From positions 17,137 through 81,136 of the forward strand of contig JAZQCF010000008.1 of assembly GCA_045546075.1 (NCBI GenBank): a stretch of 64,000 nucleotides of DNA. Direction: 5' to 3'. The notes beneath the pieces were generated by a model. That model saw nothing but the letters and a program-made list of their open reading frames with translations. It was not told where the DNA came from and searched no databases. Position 1 is the stretch's first letter. Each line of letters starts with the position of its first letter. Shown here piece by piece: positions 18,033 through 52,329 of this stretch. Origin of the DNA: Candidatus Enterousia sp. (lineage in GTDB: Bacteria; Pseudomonadota; Alphaproteobacteria; Rs-D84). The position numbers and the translations under genes were made by a program.

Positions 18033-18062
18033 TTGACCCCGATTGTGCATTTTTGATAAAGT
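18033..18062 (+). promoter_or_regulatory. Promoter of leader copy 1 / F2
   Basis: TTGACC, 18-nt spacer, TAAAGT. Homologous to 23943 and 51494. Confidence 0.55.
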
Positions 18063-18067
18063 GTATT

Positions 18068-18290
18068 TGAACACGGATGGGAATCCGGTTCGGGGCCCTG
18101 AGAAGCCCATACTATCCGGTGCCAAGGACATCGTAATTCCACGATTTCCATTTTTTGGCATCGATATATTCCCCGAATTTGTTGGTTCGGGGTGCGGTGG
18201 TTATATAACAGGCATTGCCGAAGCCCACTGGGATTACTGATAGTATGATTTCTCAACGCCCCGACCGTCATTTCCATTGACGGTTCTTTT
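18068..18290 (+). promoter_or_regulatory. Structured 5' leader copy 1 (candidate riboswitch/attenuator) with terminator 18264-18290
   Basis: One of three homologous leaders with covarying hairpins (18119-18161, 18171-18192). An antiterminator segment overlaps the terminator ACCGTCA...TGACGGT-TCTTTT. The TSS is inferred. Confidence 0.6.
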
Positions 18291-18318
18291 ACACCAAAAT
18301 GGAAAGGGGGAGTACACA

Positions 18319-19074
18319 ATGCACAAAAAATTACTGTTCGGTTTAATCGGCGCGATTGTTGCAACAAACGCATTTGCGAACCAAATTGTCACAAGTCAAA
18401 CATACGTTGATAATATGGACGCATTAAAACAAGATAAAATTACCGCCGGTACCACAGGGGCGGTTGTCACATATAATGGCGAGATAGACGGTCAGGCACA
18501 ATTCAGCGAGCAGGCGATTTATGATGGTACAACAACATATGATGCCACGACAGATGCGAATAAACTTGTTACCGCCGGGGCGGTATCAAATATGGCACCG
18601 GCATTACCAACCGGAACGGCAAACGCCGCGGTTACATACGATGCCAACGGTAATATTGGCGGCGAACGGGGGATTTGGTCCTATGATTATCAATTTTATG
18701 GAGGCAGTGTCGACTATATGCAATCTTTTAAAGATAATTTAACTACGCTCGATAGTGTTAGAAGCGCGCTAGATTATGTGTCAACGGATATAACCAGTGT
18801 TATGCCGAATGGGGATAGTGCAACCAGAATGCTACCGGTGTTTAGGAACGACTATGATTCGCAGTATTCTAATAAAGATAAGTTTTGGAAAGTGATGATT
18901 ACAAATTCAATCAACGGGGAAAATAAGTGGGATACGTATAATTTAATTCCAAGTCTTATGGCGGTAAATGCGGGGTTGGATACCAAACAATCCAAAAAGG
19001 TTTGTGTCCGTTGGTTGCCAGATGTCGTCGAACAAACGGATGAAACCTGCCTGTTGTGGGATTTGCCGGACTAG
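18319..19074 (+). CDS. Secreted YVD/CLLW-family protein, paralog F2 (251 aa)
   Basis: GGGGGAG RBS, signal ending AFA, VTSQTYVDNMDALKQDKITAG..VVTY, TAGAV, C-terminal CLLW. Confidence 0.7.
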   Translation: MHKKLLFGLIGAIVATNAFANQIVTSQTYVDNMDALKQDKITAGTTGAVVTYNGEIDGQAQFSEQAIYDGTTTYDATTDANKLVTAGAVSNMAPALPTGTANAAVTYDANGNIGGERGIWSYDYQFYGGSVDYMQSFKDNLTTLDSVRSALDYVSTDITSVMPNGDSATRMLPVFRNDYDSQYSNKDKFWKVMITNSINGENKWDTYNLIPSLMAVNAGLDTKQSKKVCVRWLPDVVEQTDETCLLWDLPD

Positions 19075-20770: not shown

Positions 20771-20861
20771 GGAGATGTCGCATAGTTGGTCTAGTGCGCC
20801 ACATTGGAAATGTGGTATACGGGCAACCGTATCAAGGGTTCGAATCCCTTCATCTCCGCCA
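20771..20861 (+). tRNA. tRNA-Ser (anticodon GGA)
   Basis: GGAGATG acceptor, anticodon arm CCACA-TTGGAAA-TGTGG, long variable arm, GGGTTCGAATCCC, CCA encoded. Confidence 0.9.
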
Positions 20862-21023: not shown

Positions 21024-21029
21024 GAATAA

Positions 21030-21068
21030 AATCTTAAAAATCCGCGACTGCGGATTTTTTGATTTTAT
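21030..21068 (+). repeat. 39-nt direct repeat (copy 1) containing a terminator hairpin
   Basis: AATCTTAAAAATCCGCGACTGCGGATTTTTTGATTTTAT is identical to 21202-21240. Confidence 0.85.
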
Positions 21069-21086: not shown

Positions 21087-21201
21087 GTGTGCGAGCGCAG
21101 CGCAGCACACAATCCGCGAATAAACAATTAGAAAAATCATAAAAATCGCCGGAACAAGATTTTTATAGATTTTAATTATTGTTTATCAAGACAACCAATT
21201 T

Positions 21202-21240
21202 AATCTTAAAAATCCGCGACTGCGGATTTTTTGATTTTAT
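21202..21240 (+). repeat. 39-nt direct repeat (copy 2)
   Basis: Identical to 21030-21068. Confidence 0.85.
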
Positions 21241-21329
21241 GTTTTGGAAATTCTTGGTAAAAAATCCACTTGCCCGGTGCGGGGAAAATCTGTATCATAG
21301 ATTCCCGTAGAGCAGGGGAACAATTTATT

Positions 21330-23936
21330 ATGAAATATCGTGGATTGACCGCCGCCGCGGTCACGCAAAGTCGCGAAAAATATGGCGCAAACACTATGCC
21401 GGAACCACATGCGAAAACCGCATGGGAATTTTTATTGGATGTGTTTCGCGATAAAATAAACATTATTTTATTGATAATGACGATTATATTCGCGGTCCTT
21501 GCGATATTGGGCTTTGGCGAATTAACCGAGGCATTGGGTATCGGGGCGGTCTTGGTTATTGTATGTGTTGTAAATGTTATTACCCACCTGCGCGCGCAAC
21601 ACAGTACCATCGAACTGCGTCGCCGCGCATCAAAACAGATGTGCAATGTCGTGCGTGCCGGACGCGTGCGCAACATAGACAGCACAGAAATCGTCGTTGG
21701 CGATATAGTTTTAATTTCGGCGGGCGAAACAATTCCGGCCGATGGATATATCGTATCGGGACATGTGGAAGTAAATAATTCCGTCCTTAATGGCGAAAGT
21801 GATGAAGTTCATAAATCACCGGTTGCAAATTTCAAGTATAACCGCGATGCCACCGTGACGGCGGATGATTATACCGATGCGAATCATGTCTTTGCGGGAA
21901 CAACGGTTCATGGCGGCGGGGGCGCAATGATTGTGACGCGCGTTGGCATGGACACCGAAAATGCAAAAATCTTGCGCGCGGTCGGCGATGTCCGCGAAGT
22001 AAAAACGACATTACAATTACAACTGGACCGGGTTGCGCGTGTAATTGGAAAATTTGGTGCGATATGTGCGATTGTGGTTGCGGCGTGTATGATAATATTT
22101 CACCTGGTCGCGTCCAATGCGCACGGCGTTGGGAACATTGTTTATATTGTTGTGTCGGCGATAACACTGGCATTGACGATTTTTGTTGCCGCCGTTCCCG
22201 AAGGACTGCCGTTTATCATAGAAATCATTACATCCCAAAATGCACACAAAATGACACGGGCGAATCTGTTGGCAAAAAATCCCCATAAAATCCCAGAGGC
22301 CGGAAATATACAATTACTCTGTACCGACAAAACCGGCACGATTACATTTGGCCGTATGCAGCCGGTTGCAAATTACCTTGGCGATGGGACAAATGTCGGG
22401 TTTGCGGTCCGGTCGATTGGTGCCACGGCCGAAATTGCGAATAATATCGTCCTGAACGGGCGTGCAATGTTGGATGCAAACGGCAATATAGTCGGCGGAA
22501 ACACGACGGAAAGGGCGCTGTTCGGGGCAATGAATTTAACTGCGCACCGCATCGCAACCATTCGCCGCGAAAATCATATCGTTGCAAAAATCCCATTCGC
22601 CAGTGCACATAAATTTTCGGCCACAACCGTGCGCGGTCCAAACGGCACGCGAACATATGTTATGGCGGCCCCAGAAATCATATTGGCGCACGCGAACCGG
22701 TATATTGATACGGATGGTGCGGTTCATTCTATGCGCGGGTCCAAGGTAAAACGTTTAATGGTGTCAAATGCGCGCCGTGCGATGCGTGTAATTGCAACCG
22801 CGTATTATGATGGCGCAATATCGGGTAATGCCGTGCCAGACAATTTGGTCTTTATTGCGTTGTCCATTATGCGGGACGAAGTTCGCCCCGGTGTCGCCGA
22901 TGTGGTTGGCGCGATGCATGAATCGGGTGTTCGTGTTATGATGATAACGGGCGATAATTTGGAAACCGCGCGGGTTATCGCAACGGAATCGGGCATCATA
23001 TCAAACGACCAAGACATCGCAATATCGGCCACCGAATTTGATGCTTTGCCGGATGCGCGGGCGCGTCGAATGTTGCCCAAGATATCTGTGATTGCGCGTG
23101 CAACACCATACACTAAATTGCGCATGGTTGAATTGGCGCGTATGGATGGAATAAGTATAGGTATGTGTGGCGACGGCACGAACGATGCGCCGGCACTGCG
23201 CGCCGCCGATGTGGGCTTTGCCATGGGCGACAGTACCGATGTATGCAAAGGCGCAAGCGATATAATCATTGTCGATAATAATTTTATATCTATCGCGAAC
23301 AGTATTTTGATGGGGCGCACATTTATGCATAATGTGGTTGGATTTTTGCGGTTTCAATTACCGATAAACTTTATCTTGGTCGCGGTCAGCATTCTGTTCC
23401 CGCTGTTTTTAGGCTTTGATGCGATAATGGCGGTCCAGATTTTGATTATAAACATTATTATCGACAGTTTGAATTCTTTGGCATTTGGTGGCGAAGCGGC
23501 ACGACCCGAATATATGCGCGAACCCGTGCATGGTAAAAATTCGCCATTGATTACGCGTGAAACATTGCGCGGTGTTATTTGGACAACGGTGGTCGGCGTG
23601 TTCATAGTGTCCATTACCACAACGCCGGCGGCAATGCGTTTGTTTGGCAATGCGGACGTGGCGTTGTCGGCCCGTTTCGCATTGATAATTATTGTTGCGA
23701 TGTTAAATGGTTTTTGCGTGCGTGCGCCGGGGTATAATATATTTTCGGGATTGCGTGCGAACCCAATGTTTGTGGCGGTGGCGGCGTTTGTGTTTGTGGG
23801 AACATACCTGTGCGTGACATTTGGTGGCGCGGCATTACACCTGACCCCAATGGGGTGGGAACAATGGTTTGTTGTTGCGGGATTGGGACTGTGCGTTGTT
23901 CCATTAAATATGCTTTATAAAAGAATCTTTCGATAA
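21330..23936 (+). CDS. P-type cation-transporting ATPase (Ca2+/P2-type-like)
   Basis: AGGGGAA RBS, CTDKTGTIT phosphorylation site, MITGDN, GDGTNDAPAL, multiple TM segments. Confidence 0.85.
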   Translation: MKYRGLTAAAVTQSREKYGANTMPEPHAKTAWEFLLDVFRDKINIILLIMTIIFAVLAILGFGELTEALGIGAVLVIVCVVNVITHLRAQHSTIELRRRASKQMCNVVRAGRVRNIDSTEIVVGDIVLISAGETIPADGYIVSGHVEVNNSVLNGESDEVHKSPVANFKYNRDATVTADDYTDANHVFAGTTVHGGGGAMIVTRVGMDTENAKILRAVGDVREVKTTLQLQLDRVARVIGKFGAICAIVVAACMIIFHLVASNAHGVGNIVYIVVSAITLALTIFVAAVPEGLPFIIEIITSQNAHKMTRANLLAKNPHKIPEAGNIQLLCTDKTGTITFGRMQPVANYLGDGTNVGFAVRSIGATAEIANNIVLNGRAMLDANGNIVGGNTTERALFGAMNLTAHRIATIRRENHIVAKIPFASAHKFSATTVRGPNGTRTYVMAAPEIILAHANRYIDTDGAVHSMRGSKVKRLMVSNARRAMRVIATAYYDGAISGNAVPDNLVFIALSIMRDEVRPGVADVVGAMHESGVRVMMITGDNLETARVIATESGIISNDQDIAISATEFDALPDARARRMLPKISVIARATPYTKLRMVELARMDGISIGMCGDGTNDAPALRAADVGFAMGDSTDVCKGASDIIIVDNNFISIANSILMGRTFMHNVVGFLRFQLPINFILVAVSILFPLFLGFDAIMAVQILIINIIIDSLNSLAFGGEAARPEYMREPVHGKNSPLITRETLRGVIWTTVVGVFIVSITTTPAAMRLFGNADVALSARFALIIIVAMLNGFCVRAPGYNIFSGLRANPMFVAVAAFVFVGTYLCVTFGGAALHLTPMGWEQWFVVAGLGLCVVPLNMLYKRIFR

Positions 23937-23942
23937 AAGTCC

Positions 23943-23971
23943 TTGACCGGGATATGCGTTTTTGATAGAAT
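23943..23971 (+). promoter_or_regulatory. Promoter of leader copy 2 / F3
   Basis: TTGACC, 17-nt spacer, TAGAAT. Confidence 0.6.
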
Positions 23972-23977
23972 AGCAAA

Positions 23978-24190
23978 TGAATCGGATGGGAATCCGTTTC
24001 GGGGCTGTAGCAGGCCTATGTGTATCCGGTGCAATGCATCGTAATCCGTTGCGATTTCCGTGTTTTTGCACCGCAATATTACCCCAATAGTGGTTGGGGT
24101 GCCGGTGGTGTATATATAAATATCATCGGGATCGTTGATACACATGATTTGCTAACACCCCGACCGTCAATTCCCATTGACGGTTGTTTT
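23978..24190 (+). promoter_or_regulatory. Structured 5' leader copy 2 (candidate riboswitch/attenuator) with terminator 24163-24190
   Basis: Homologous to 18068-18290, with hairpins 24028-24072 and 24082-24099. A 10-bp alternative helix GGTTGGGGTG:CACCCCGACC overlaps the terminator stem. Confidence 0.6.
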
Positions 24191-24212
24191 ATACCAAAAA
24201 AGAGGGAATTCA

Positions 24213-25097
24213 ATGAGCAAAAAATTACTTTTCGCCATAATCGCGACAATTTGTACCACCACCGCATTCGCAGATTCAAAAACTATAACGACCCAGGATT
24301 ATGTAGATACAAATTTCCAAACAAAGATTCCCGCTACATCATCAGATCTTGAATGGGTAACAAAAACTTTGGTGGCAACAACGGACACCGCCGGTCAAGT
24401 TGAACAAATAGGGGTTTATAGTTCTGATCTAGAAGATTACGGTGGTAGTAGTTATTTGCCACAATACAATTTGGATATTAATAGTTTCAACATGATTAAC
24501 AATGTTATTCCTACATATGCAAGTACGTATATGGATAAAGAGCAGCTTCGGCTTGATATGTATGGGAATATGCAAATACGAATTCCCAGAAGTGGTGAAA
24601 TAGTATACGAATATGGGGTTGGCGACAATGGTCCCTATACAAGTTCGTTAACAATGACTACTTGGAATAATCCTTGGTGGTTGCGTAATGATGTCAAAGG
24701 GACCGGTTTGGTTACCAAAACAAGTACCGATGGCGGTGTTGGTGAACGTCAAATTATTGAAACGGCGGATGTTGCAAATTATGGGACCGGCACCGCCACC
24801 GAACAACAAATTCAAGAAATATCTATTCCCACAATGGGGGCGGTTATGGCGGCAATTTCAAATAATACCCCCTCATTACCAACGGGGACGGCGGGAAATG
24901 TCGTCACATATAACGCATCCGGTCAAATCGGTGGTTCGGTTGCAACATATAACGGTTCGACCACATACAACGCATCAACCGATGCATCGAAAATCGCGGT
25001 TATGTCCGCGGTGCAACGCAAAATGACCTGTGCGCAGTATGTTCAAAATGCCGCAGAAACACCGGAAAACTGCCTGTTATGGAACGTGCTAGATTAA
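24213..25097 (+). CDS. Secreted YVD/CLLW-family protein, paralog F3 (294 aa)
   Basis: Signal ending AFA, TTQDYVDTNFQTKI, NVVTYNASGQIGG, TMGAV, C-terminal TC...NCLLW. Confidence 0.7.
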   Translation: MSKKLLFAIIATICTTTAFADSKTITTQDYVDTNFQTKIPATSSDLEWVTKTLVATTDTAGQVEQIGVYSSDLEDYGGSSYLPQYNLDINSFNMINNVIPTYASTYMDKEQLRLDMYGNMQIRIPRSGEIVYEYGVGDNGPYTSSLTMTTWNNPWWLRNDVKGTGLVTKTSTDGGVGERQIIETADVANYGTGTATEQQIQEISIPTMGAVMAAISNNTPSLPTGTAGNVVTYNASGQIGGSVATYNGSTTYNASTDASKIAVMSAVQRKMTCAQYVQNAAETPENCLLWNVLD

Positions 25098-46985: not shown

Positions 46986-47115
46986 AAAAAATCCCCGCGT
47001 TTGCGGGGATTTTGAAATAGGCAAAAATTATTTTGCTTCTTTTGCGACCTTTTCGTTCGCGGTTGCGGACAAATCTTCCACAATACGTGCCTTTTTACCG
47101 GACAGTTTGCGCAAA
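46986..47115. repeat. 130-bp direct repeat A (rplS 3' end plus terminator)
   Basis: About 95% identical (6 mismatches) to 48466-48595, at an offset of 1480 bp. Confidence 0.9.
47028..47115 (-). pseudogene. Displaced 3' fragment of rplS
   Basis: Encodes ...[28 protein letters not shown], matching the rplS C-terminus (48508-) but with no upstream gene body. Confidence 0.85.
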
Positions 47116-48465: not shown

Positions 48466-48595
48466 AAAAAATCCCCGCATTTGCGGGGATTTTGAAATAG
48501 GCAAAAATTATTTTGCTTCTTTTGCGGTCTTTTCGTTCGCGGTTGCAGACAAATCTTCCACAATACGCGCCTTTTTACCGGACAATTTGCGCAAA
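48466..48595. repeat. 130-bp direct repeat B (functional rplS 3' end plus terminator)
   Basis: Partner of 46986-47115. The terminator is AAAATCCCCGC-ATTT-GCGGGGATTTT. Confidence 0.9.
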
Positions 48596-51493: not shown

Positions 51494-51525
51494 TTGACCC
51501 CGAATCGTGTTTTTTGTTAGAATGT
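51494..51525 (+). promoter_or_regulatory. Promoter of leader copy 3 / F4-F5
   Basis: TTGACC, 18-nt spacer, TAGAAT. Confidence 0.6.
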
Positions 51526-51531
51526 ATTTGA

Positions 51532-51730
51532 ACCAATGGGAAGCCATTCTCGGTTCGGGCTGTCGTAGGCCCACATCTTGGACGGCACACAATTTTTTTG
51601 GGTGTGCCAAATACCCCGCCTGTCGGGGTGCCGATGGTTATAATGCGCTGTCAAAAGGCCTATCGGGATCAACTTCCAAGATGTGATTTACGAACACCCC
51701 GACCGTCTGTTTTCCACGACGGTTTATTTA
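51532..51730 (+). promoter_or_regulatory. Structured 5' leader copy 3 (candidate riboswitch/attenuator) with terminator 51702-51730
   Basis: Homologous to copies 1 and 2, with compensated hairpins 51584-51608 and 51614-51628. GTCGGGGTG:CACCCCGAC is an alternative helix. The terminator is ACCGTC...GACGGT-TTATTT. Confidence 0.6.
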
Positions 51731-51774
51731 TACACAAAACAATCCCTGTGAGGGGGAAAGGAGAAAAACAAGCG

Positions 51775-52329
51775 ATGAAAAATTCCAAAATTCTATTATT
51801 TGGCGCGGTGGTGTCGGTATTGACATCGGGCGCATTTGCCGCAACAACAACCCAAACCGTCACGACCCGGGGTTATGTTGATACCGCGGTTGCGACCAAA
51901 CAGAATAAATTATCCGGCACGTCCGGTTATGCCGTCACATACGGCGCAAGCGCGGGTACAACGGATGAACGGCAAATCGTAACATCACTTGGGTCGGACA
52001 CGACGGCGACGACATTGCCGACAACGGGCGCGGTGGTTGCGGGCCTGAACGCTAAACAAAATACATTAAACGGCGCGGCAAACAGTGTTATTACATATAC
52101 CGGCACGGCGGGCGGCACCGGTTCCAAGGGTGTGTACCAGGCATCAGGTTCGTATTCATCCCAAACAAACAATTTGGCCGAGGCCGGACATGTAAACACG
52201 GCGGTTGCGAACGCGTTTAATGCACATTTAACATGCAATACATACGCAACGCCGGGTGATAGCAGCAGTGATTGTTTGCTCTGGAATGTGAACAATTTGT
52301 CGGGCACATATATGCCAGAGAATCAATAA
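51775..52329 (+). CDS. Secreted YVD/CLLW-family protein, paralog F4 (184 aa)
   Basis: GGAG RBS, signal ending AFA, TTRGYVDTAVATKQNKL, AVTYG, TTGAV, LTC...DCLLW. Confidence 0.7.
   Translation: MKNSKILLFGAVVSVLTSGAFAATTTQTVTTRGYVDTAVATKQNKLSGTSGYAVTYGASAGTTDERQIVTSLGSDTTATTLPTTGAVVAGLNAKQNTLNGAANSVITYTGTAGGTGSKGVYQASGSYSSQTNNLAEAGHVNTAVANAFNAHLTCNTYATPGDSSSDCLLWNVNNLSGTYMPENQ

Follow-up and report, generated by a model that had tools for sequence, protein, structure and literature searches.

A conserved leader RNA and candidate transcription attenuator upstream of secreted-protein genes in Candidatus Enterousia sp.

Described RNAs with a similar design

The small RNA (sRNA) family sRNA-Xcc1 (RF02221) is an 87-nt three-way junction found in integron cassettes, plasmids and phages of Proteobacteria. 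In the literature it lies 5' of symE in Xanthomonas integrons and 5' of an ORF6N gene in the APSE phage, and it is described as a trans-acting sRNA, with a discrete transcript detected in Xylella; no proposal of a cis mechanism was found in the sRNA-Xcc1 literature. We describe here a leader RNA containing a related junction, encoded in a 64,000-nt stretch of contig JAZQCF010000008.1 of Candidatus Enterousia sp. (hereafter the window; all coordinates are window positions). The region 23943-24212 (leader copy 2 of three in the window) appears, on balance, to be the promoter and 5' leader of the gene at 24213-25097 (F3), and to belong to a conserved family of cis-acting leader RNAs that would gate envelope and secreted-protein genes at a terminator. 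The leader is real, strongly conserved and uncatalogued. At the Rfam gathering score the whole window contains only a transfer-messenger RNA (tmRNA) and transfer RNAs (tRNAs), and permissive Rfam scans of copies 1 and 2 gave noise only, with no sRNA-Xcc1 match even at E < 10. Rfam 15 has no family for the leader and none of its riboswitch models matched; no description of the leader was found in literature on Enterousia, Rs-D84 and sRNA-Xcc1 with riboswitch.

Other cis-acting RNAs share parts of this design. In transcriptional riboswitches such as pbuE adenine, ZTP and fluoride, an intrinsic terminator overlaps with the closing strand, the 3' strand of a pseudoknot or of P1. The leader has the same layout (promoter, covarying aptamer-like fold, terminator sharing a few nucleotides with it, Shine-Dalgarno [SD] sequence, gene), and like these riboswitches it has an upstream strand that competes for the P1 5' strand; like second-messenger riboswitches, it is present in multiple copies within a genome. 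Unlike most riboswitches, it is much larger, its long-range helices are copy-specific, and its regulon would be the cell surface rather than a metabolic pathway. EAR, put, RfaH, UpxY and LoaP are associated with processive antitermination of surface-polysaccharide operons, in which terminators are overcome. Their leaders, like the one described here, are cis elements in the 5' leaders of cell-surface genes, but there is no sequence or structure match between them, and the present terminator is fused to the fold and its targets are often monocistronic.

The closest relationship is to sRNA-Xcc1. At the level of the family, the junction domain of the leader (D2) has the same architecture over the full model: a 9-bp G-rich P1 (GUCGGGAG/CUCCCGAC in the Pseudomonas member, GUCGGGGAG/CUCCCCGAC here), a P2 with an internal loop, (U)AUACAA / GAA-AAAG, and a small hairpin at its distal end, a formal P3 that K1 and K2 contest, and a 6-nt junction ending in AAC. 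Consensus-like D2 members with a long P2 match positions 1-87 of the sRNA-Xcc1 model at 36-41 bits (E values down to 2e-6); the best relatives score 41.3, 39.4 and 36.5 bits and do not reach the gathering score of 53. Detection is reciprocal: two true sRNA-Xcc1 members (on a Pseudomonas aeruginosa plasmid and in an Aeromonas caviae record), which score about 72 bits in the Rfam model, are found full-length by the D2 model at 27.8 and 21.7 bits. In both, the P1 sequence, the internal loop and the AAC junction agree with D2. Like the leader, both lie directly 5' of a gene, in their case one of the BRO/ORF6N type.

The two RNAs also differ. All D2 scores fall below 53 bits, the three window copies have no match to sRNA-Xcc1, and the P2 of copy 2 lacks the distal hairpin. 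Unlike sRNA-Xcc1, D2 occupies only the 3' third of a leader of roughly 215 nt, which has three further hairpins (H1-H3); the D2 junction strand and "P3 loop" are paired to the 5' domain by the long-range helices K1 and K2, and a separate canonical terminator follows. Hosts and regulon are different as well, as the leader is found before chromosomal envelope genes in Rs-D84, whereas sRNA-Xcc1 accompanies toxin or antirepressor genes of mobile elements. D2 is best described as a divergent relative of the sRNA-Xcc1 junction inside a much larger leader.

The genomic context of the leader, together with that of the two true sRNA-Xcc1 members, argues for a cis role. The member on the Pseudomonas aeruginosa plasmid NZ_CP093017.1 (positions 1498-1620 of locus L119; 72.6 bits) has a P3 arm, CCUCUGCUUGG, that is perfectly complementary to CCAAGCAGAGG, the SD region of a BRO-family gene 40 nt downstream; this suggests that sRNA-Xcc1 on this plasmid is a cis-acting translational switch. 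In the Aeromonas member, a hairpin overlaps the 3' end of P1. One locus of the leader family (L090, 440-532 and 691-782) carries the D2 junction and terminator without the 5' domain, directly 3' of a tRNA gene and with a complete leader 150 nt further downstream, indicating that the D2 junction can stand alone, as in sRNA-Xcc1.

Structure of the leader and its family

One genome per species was searched with a 19-base pattern from the conserved 3' part of the leader, yielding at least 116 stretches. Among the matches listed, 113 of 118 have the helix partner strand upstream, and the other five are chance matches in unrelated phyla. The real hits (at least 113 loci) are distributed over about 64 metagenome-assembled genome (MAG) assemblies, nearly all of Candidatus Enterousia or of uncultured gut/rumen Alphaproteobacteria or Rickettsiales, with at least 4-8 copies in single MAGs even with so strict a pattern, and at least eight in one MAG. 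A covariance model built from relatives (R1) matched 102 times in the first 100 loci, where it also picked up members missed by the pattern, and 17 more times in the remaining loci. In the 64-kb window it has exactly three matches, on the plus strand only, at 66-67 bits (E about 1e-13). These are copy 2 and the copies at about 18033-18318 and 51494-51774, in which, as a first-pass annotation made from the letters had noted for copy 1, the same architecture recurs (mean column identity of 72% in a full-length alignment of the three). Features are listed in Table 1.

Table 1. Positions of the leader features in the window, with the F3 gene and the two further leader copies.
Feature	Position	Strand	Details
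Promoter, leader copy 2	23943-23971	+	sigma-70-type; -35 TTGACC 23943-23948, 17-nt spacer with TG extension, -10 TAGAAT 23966-23971
H1 hairpin	23979-24000	+	GAAUCGGAU-GGGA-AUCCGUUUC; extreme 5' end of transcript
H2 hairpin	24002-24017	+	stem 24002-24006 with 24013-24017; loop GUAGCA 24007-24012
K1	24008-24012 with 24150-24154	+	UAGCA (H2 loop) with UGCUA (D2 junction)
K2	24018-24026 with 24137-24145	+	AUGUGUAUC (linker after H2) with GAUACACAU; 9 Watson-Crick pairs in copy 2
H3	24027-24073	+	outer stem CGGUGCAA (24027-24034) with UUGCACCG (24066-24073), around conserved GCAUCGUAAUCC and a variable inner hairpin
seg2	24080-24087	+	UACCCCAA; candidate anti-P1 (anti-antiterminator) strand; pairs with 24094-24101 (P1 5' strand)
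Domain D2	24091-24168	+	three-way junction; covariance-model match 67.2 bits, E = 6e-14
D2 P1	24092-24101 with 24156-24165	+	"alternative helix" of the first-pass annotation
D2 P2	24102-24109 with 24122-24129	+
D2 P3	24130-34 with 24145-49	+	conflicts with K1 and K2
D2 junction	24150-24155	+	UGCUAA
Intrinsic terminator	24161-24190	+	stem 24161-24171 with 24176-24186, loop UCCC, U-tract 24187-24190
SD and gene F3	24202-25097	+	SD GAGGGA 24202-24207, ATG 24213, stop 25095-25097
Leader copy 1	18033-18318	+	promoter 18033-18062, D2 18184-18269 (66.3 bits), gene ATG 18319
Leader copy 3	51494-51774	+	promoter 51494-51523, D2 51620-51707 (66.6 bits), gene ATG 51775

The first-pass annotation had proposed a 10-bp helix, one pair being G-U, between GGTTGGGGTG (24092-24101) and CACCCCGACC (24156-24165), as an antiterminator that invades the terminator stem. 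The complementarity is exact as given (the G-U is U24095-G24162), and it did not arise by chance, since compensatory changes have kept the helix. In a model-based alignment of D2, 98% of cells are paired, compared to 86% in shuffles and 33-47% with slid partners; 16 of 25 pairs are changed on both sides, and none of 500 shuffles reaches any observed measure. The family consensus of P1 is GUCGGGGNG with CNCCCCGAC (alignment of 107 sequences), with one variable pair (U-A 40, A-U 27, G-U 28, U-G 3), and further compensatory P1 changes are present in hits independent of the pattern, such as GGGUAU/AUACCC (L021) and GGGGAU/AUCCCC (L088). The antiterminator proposal stands in part: the helix is conserved and its 3' strand overlaps the terminator 5' arm by 5 nt, but it is P1 of a three-way-junction domain within a larger leader rather than a free-standing helix, and H1-H3, K1, K2 and a third competitor, seg2, were absent from the proposal.

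The minimum free energy (MFE) fold of the 78-nt D2 of copy 2 alone is the three-way junction (-33.2 kcal/mol, z = -3.8), and for the whole leader the folding energy is -91.5 kcal/mol (z = -6.0). Across the family, P2 consists of 8 bp, and in about two thirds of the members it also has an internal loop (UAUAnAA/AAAG) and ends in a small hairpin; the formal P3 is GRRUCA with UGAUUU, and the junction strand is U-NNN-AA.

The 140 nt before D2 are likewise conserved, with the order H1, H2, a 7-11-nt linker, H3, seg2, D2 and terminator. A -10-like TAnnnT lies 4-19 nt 5' of H1 in 99 of 109 distinct leaders and is visible in the family consensus. H1 has the family form GAAyC...GGGA...GGUUC and covaries (C-G 40, G-C 19 and A-U 19 at one pair; A-U 59 and G-C 29 at the next). 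Covariation is also seen in the stem of H2 (family form GGGCU-GUnnnA-AGCCC; C-G 96 and U-A 5, G-C 95 and A-U 8) and in the outer stem of H3 (family form CGGUGCAA...UUGCACCG around GCAUCGUAAUCC; G-C 69, A-U 15 and G-U 14; U-A 61, U-G 24 and C-G 11).

Two long-range helices connect this 5' domain to D2. In K1, the variable triplet of the H2 loop has its Watson-Crick complement in the NNN of the D2 junction; this holds for 106 of 108 distinct leaders, which use 16 different triplet pairs, while shuffles match in a mean of 18. K2 joins the linker after H2 to a partner that, in the family, consists of the "P3 loop" and the UG of UGAUUU; 7-11 contiguous Watson-Crick pairs are present in 103 of 109 leaders, and with permuted partners the mean longest run is 3.7. 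For copy 2, the predicted energies are about -12.7 kcal/mol for the K2 duplex and about -5.6 for K1. K2 is nested with the seg2 hairpin (seg2 paired to the P1 5' strand) but pseudoknotted with P1. In an unbiased mutual-information scan of the concatenated alignment, K1, K2, the P1 pair and the P2 pairs rank at the top.

The same scan brought out an isolated covarying pair outside the modelled helices, between the last base of the H2 5' strand and the first base after P2 (U-A 76, C-G 12, U-G 2, C-A 2; U24006 and G24130 in copy 2), which points to a compact tertiary junction. P3 was downgraded from a firm helix: it has only A/G-U variation and no compensatory change, and K1, K2 and this isolated pair (43:156) use nucleotides that it would need, so P3 would be lacking from the mature fold or form only in an alternative state.

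Several other pairings were tried and rejected. A T-box leader has no Rfam match here, and a T-box-like specifier is rejected since the variable junction triplet pairs in cis with the H2 loop, as K1. A pseudoknot between the H1 GGGA loop and seg2 has no support, as members with non-GGG loops retain CCC in seg2. The whole-leader MFE fold joins the 5' UCGGGG at the boundary of H1 and H2 to the P1 3' strand, a pairing that lies beyond the reach of covariation and conflicts with the covarying H2 stem.

The leader of copy 2 has a promoter that agrees with the consensus at 10 of 12 positions in a promoter scan, with a predicted transcription start at about 23977-23979. Copies 1 and 3 match at 9 of 12 and 10 of 12 positions, respectively, each with an 18-nt spacer; the earlier judgement that the copy 2 promoter (TTGACC-17-TAGAAT) has the best spacing of the three is correct for this reason. 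At the other end of the leader, the terminator core pairs ACCGTCAA (24163-24170) with TTGACGGT (24177-24184), followed by TGTTTT (24185-24190). This confirms the previously annotated stem (24163-24184), which the terminator scan lengthens to 11 pairs (24161-24186). The hairpin alone folds at -14.8 kcal/mol (z = -6.0), and positions 24161-24165 are common to the terminator and the P1 3' strand.

In the family, a hairpin lies 3' of D2 in 106 of 106 leaders (mean -12.7 kcal/mol, stem of 7-14 pairs), at least five U residues follow within 9 nt in 90 of 106, and in 77 of 106 the hairpin takes 3 nt (GAC) of the 9-nt P1 3' strand. The terminator stem covaries in hits not selected by the pattern (ACCGCC/GGCGGU, ACCAUC/GAUGGU, ACCACC/GGUGGU). 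Family start codons are 37-50 nt beyond the pattern end (terminator included), or ~15-25 nt after the U-tract, leaving room for an SD sequence only. In copy 2, the 22 nt between the end of the U-tract (24190) and the ATG (24213) are too short for a second promoter, so the gene should be reachable by read-through only. At its upstream side, the stop codon of a P-type ATPase gene is only 7 nt before the leader promoter (window 23936-23943) with no terminator between, and read-through into the leader is possible.

The strand seg2 (family form CCCYGA) is present 5' of D2 in nearly all leaders. In copy 2 its predicted hairpin with the P1 5' strand (24080-24101) has an energy of -12.7 kcal/mol, and across the family the duplex has a mean of -12.8 versus -7.7 for shuffled sequences; the potential to form it is universal and independent of the cognate partner. 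Covariation of the variable P1 position with the base 5' of seg2 was looked for and is absent, the native base being optimal in 26 of 106 leaders.

Probable attenuation and its rivals

The leader is best read, from its sequence and predicted folding, as a riboswitch-like or factor-dependent transcription attenuator, and it probably decides transcription read-through into the gene. A promoter lies upstream, a terminator lies just before the SD sequence and start codon, and the structured domain covaries; competition between P1 and the terminator would be the most economical reading. In such an attenuator, a small ligand, an ion or a protein would stabilise the complete fold, in which P1 is zipped over its full length; this would block the basal terminator pairs and permit read-through (ON). 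Otherwise, seg2 would capture the P1 5' strand, the terminator would form, and an RNA of roughly 210 nt would be released (OFF). The states would be close in energy, with the small overlap deciding the fate of the basal terminator pairs. The nested energies predicted for copy 2 are -61.1 for the seg2 hairpin with the full terminator, -58.4 for the full P1, and -57.2 kcal/mol for a 7-bp P1 with a 9-bp terminator; by this model the alternative states are near-isoenergetic. Both the polarity (ON upon binding) and the nature of the effector are guesses.

Several observations weigh against this reading. The overlap is mostly 3 nt, and the complete terminator could form beside a P1 that is merely shortened, the two being stacked (the state at -57.2 kcal/mol); P1 may then not prevent termination, which leaves antitermination plausible only. 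Compensatory covariation between seg2 and P1 is sparse, being limited to a handful of cases (CCCCAA with GUUGGGG four times including copy 2, CCCCGAU/AUCGGGG, CCCCGAA/UUCGGGG and GCCUGAC/GUCGGGU). In copies 1 and 3 the U-tract is broken up and does not pass the terminator scan. P3 conflicts with K1, K2 and the U/C43-A/G156 pair. The search pattern fixes the P1 3' strand and the first terminator bases, and only seven hits are pattern-independent, so variation there is under-sampled. Lastly, so broad a regulon suits control by a global signal or a protein factor no less than control by a metabolite.

A more specific proposal can be offered tentatively, as somewhat less likely to be right than wrong: the leader may combine the aptamer and the expression platform of a novel class of riboswitch, or belong to a novel antitermination system of RNA and protein. 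Either would share the sRNA-Xcc1 junction core and would place much of the envelope proteome of the reduced-genome Rs-D84 gut bacteria under one signal.

The relationship to sRNA-Xcc1 raises the alternative of an independent sRNA gene, in which the promoter, a roughly 210-nt Xcc1-like RNA and the terminator form a trans-acting unit, and constitutive leakage past the terminator supplies the transcripts of the gene that follows. This would account for the unit having its own promoter and terminator, for the closest Rfam family being described as a trans-acting sRNA with a discrete transcript in Xylella, and for the D2 copy of L090 that lacks the 5' domain and directly follows a tRNA gene. We nevertheless consider it unlikely. 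What speaks most strongly for conditional attenuation, and against an sRNA gene that stands by itself, is that the downstream gene would be transcribed from the leader promoter through the terminator: the leader is always on the same strand as, and immediately 5' of, an open reading frame (ORF), with only an SD sequence between them. The K1 triplet and the K2 sequence are private to each copy and match in cis only, several distinct copies occur per roughly 0.9-Mb genome (at least eight in one MAG), and the true sRNA-Xcc1 members are themselves directly upstream of genes.

Cell-surface and polysaccharide genes are the classic clientele of RfaH, UpxY, LoaP and EAR. The regulon of the leader consists of such genes and its RNA is large and pseudoknotted, as might be expected of a processive-antitermination element (put/EAR-like, or a loading site for a NusG/RfaH-like paralogue) that makes polymerase resistant to this and later terminators. 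The fixed 3-nt overlap between terminator and P1 is, however, a hallmark of structure competition and not of polymerase modification; many targets are single short genes, and no Rfam match to EAR or other antitermination RNA was obtained. This explanation is rather improbable.

There is also a small chance that the structure controls translation, mRNA stability or localisation, with C-rich strands masking the SD sequence, for example, or the leader serving as a 5' stabiliser. SD regions in the family are G-rich (GGGG/GAGGGA), and the predicted folds of some members, L001 among them, pair this region with the CCCC strand; the P3 of the Pseudomonas sRNA-Xcc1 is complementary to the ribosome-binding site of its BRO gene. 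This SD-CCCC pairing is not consistently predicted in the family, however, and a terminator hairpin with a U-rich tail is kept in essentially all members, with a covarying stem.

Leader-peptide attenuation of the trp type, by ribosome stalling, is rejected as highly improbable: the repeated UCGGGG/CCCCGA segments do form an attenuator-like 1:2 / 2:3 / 3:4 chain, but no leader ORF is conserved (the would-be start triplet is ATG in just 22 of 109 leaders, and an SD sequence with an ATG ORF of at least 8 codons is present in only 2 of 45 parsable leaders), the transcript begins at H1 without an SD sequence, and the stems covary at the RNA level.

Downstream genes, hosts and implications

The genes that follow the leader are a coherent set, encoding mostly exported or envelope proteins. 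Of the distinct downstream proteins, 104 in number, a strict signal-peptide heuristic accepts 68, and about a dozen more are exported or membrane proteins as judged by eye. At least 25, including the products of the three window genes, share an N-terminal T..YVD....KQDKI motif. Most of the 86 downstream proteins scanned with Pfam belong to no family; the matches obtained are outer-membrane beta-barrels, Opacity/OprF, autotransporter, PagL, Listeria-Bacteroides repeats, several glycosyltransferases, RgpF, pyruvyl transferase and nuclease.

In the window, the leader-associated genes at 18319-19074, 24213-25097 and 51775-52329 encode three paralogous secreted proteins, each with a signal peptide. 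They have in common an N-terminal T(S/T)QxYVD...KQ(D/N)K, T/S/G-rich repeats and a C-terminal C...C-L-L-W-(N/D), and they may form fibres on the cell surface; neither Pfam nor PHROGs yielded a family for any of the three. The F3 product has 294 aa, a signal peptide and the N-terminal motif TTQDYVD, and an exact-sequence look-up of this protein found no record.

Members of the order Rs-D84, to which the MAGs with the leader belong, are uncultured, have genomes of about 0.75-1.0 Mb and are thought to be partner-dependent (PMC12306168). The nearest relative of the window is the rumen MAG RUG14636, in which locus L113 is orthologous to copy 2. A scan of viral contigs (IMG/VR) with the leader pattern gave two matches, both of which fail the covariance model, indicating that the element is not phage-borne in IMG/VR.

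Other features of the window include an alphaproteobacterial two-piece (permuted) tmRNA on the minus strand (1533-1874; 167.9 bits). A 44-nt palindromic terminator-like repeat (AAAAATCCGCGACTGCGGATTTTTT) is present in two copies that are 95% identical (21025-21068 and 21197-21240), between a tRNA (20771-20858) and the P-type ATPase gene (21270-23936). A 130-nt direct repeat, also 95% identical, is found at 46986-47115 and 48466-48595, with the copies 1480 nt apart.

If the leader is a sensor of the kind proposed, sRNA-Xcc1, the "trans-acting sRNA" of integrons, plasmids and phages, would be recast as a cis-regulatory sensor domain. The link to sRNA-Xcc1 yields a testable hypothesis for a family that has been catalogued since 2011 without a mechanism, namely that it acts as a switch in the 5' untranslated region before symE, BRO or ORF6N genes. 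As a large, covariation-rich RNA with two copy-specific pseudoknot-type helices, the leader is a good target for structure determination and ligand hunting. For the bacteria themselves, a single RNA fold placed before outer-membrane proteins, putative surface fibres and enzymes of lipopolysaccharide and polysaccharide synthesis would amount to a compact form of global cell-surface control.

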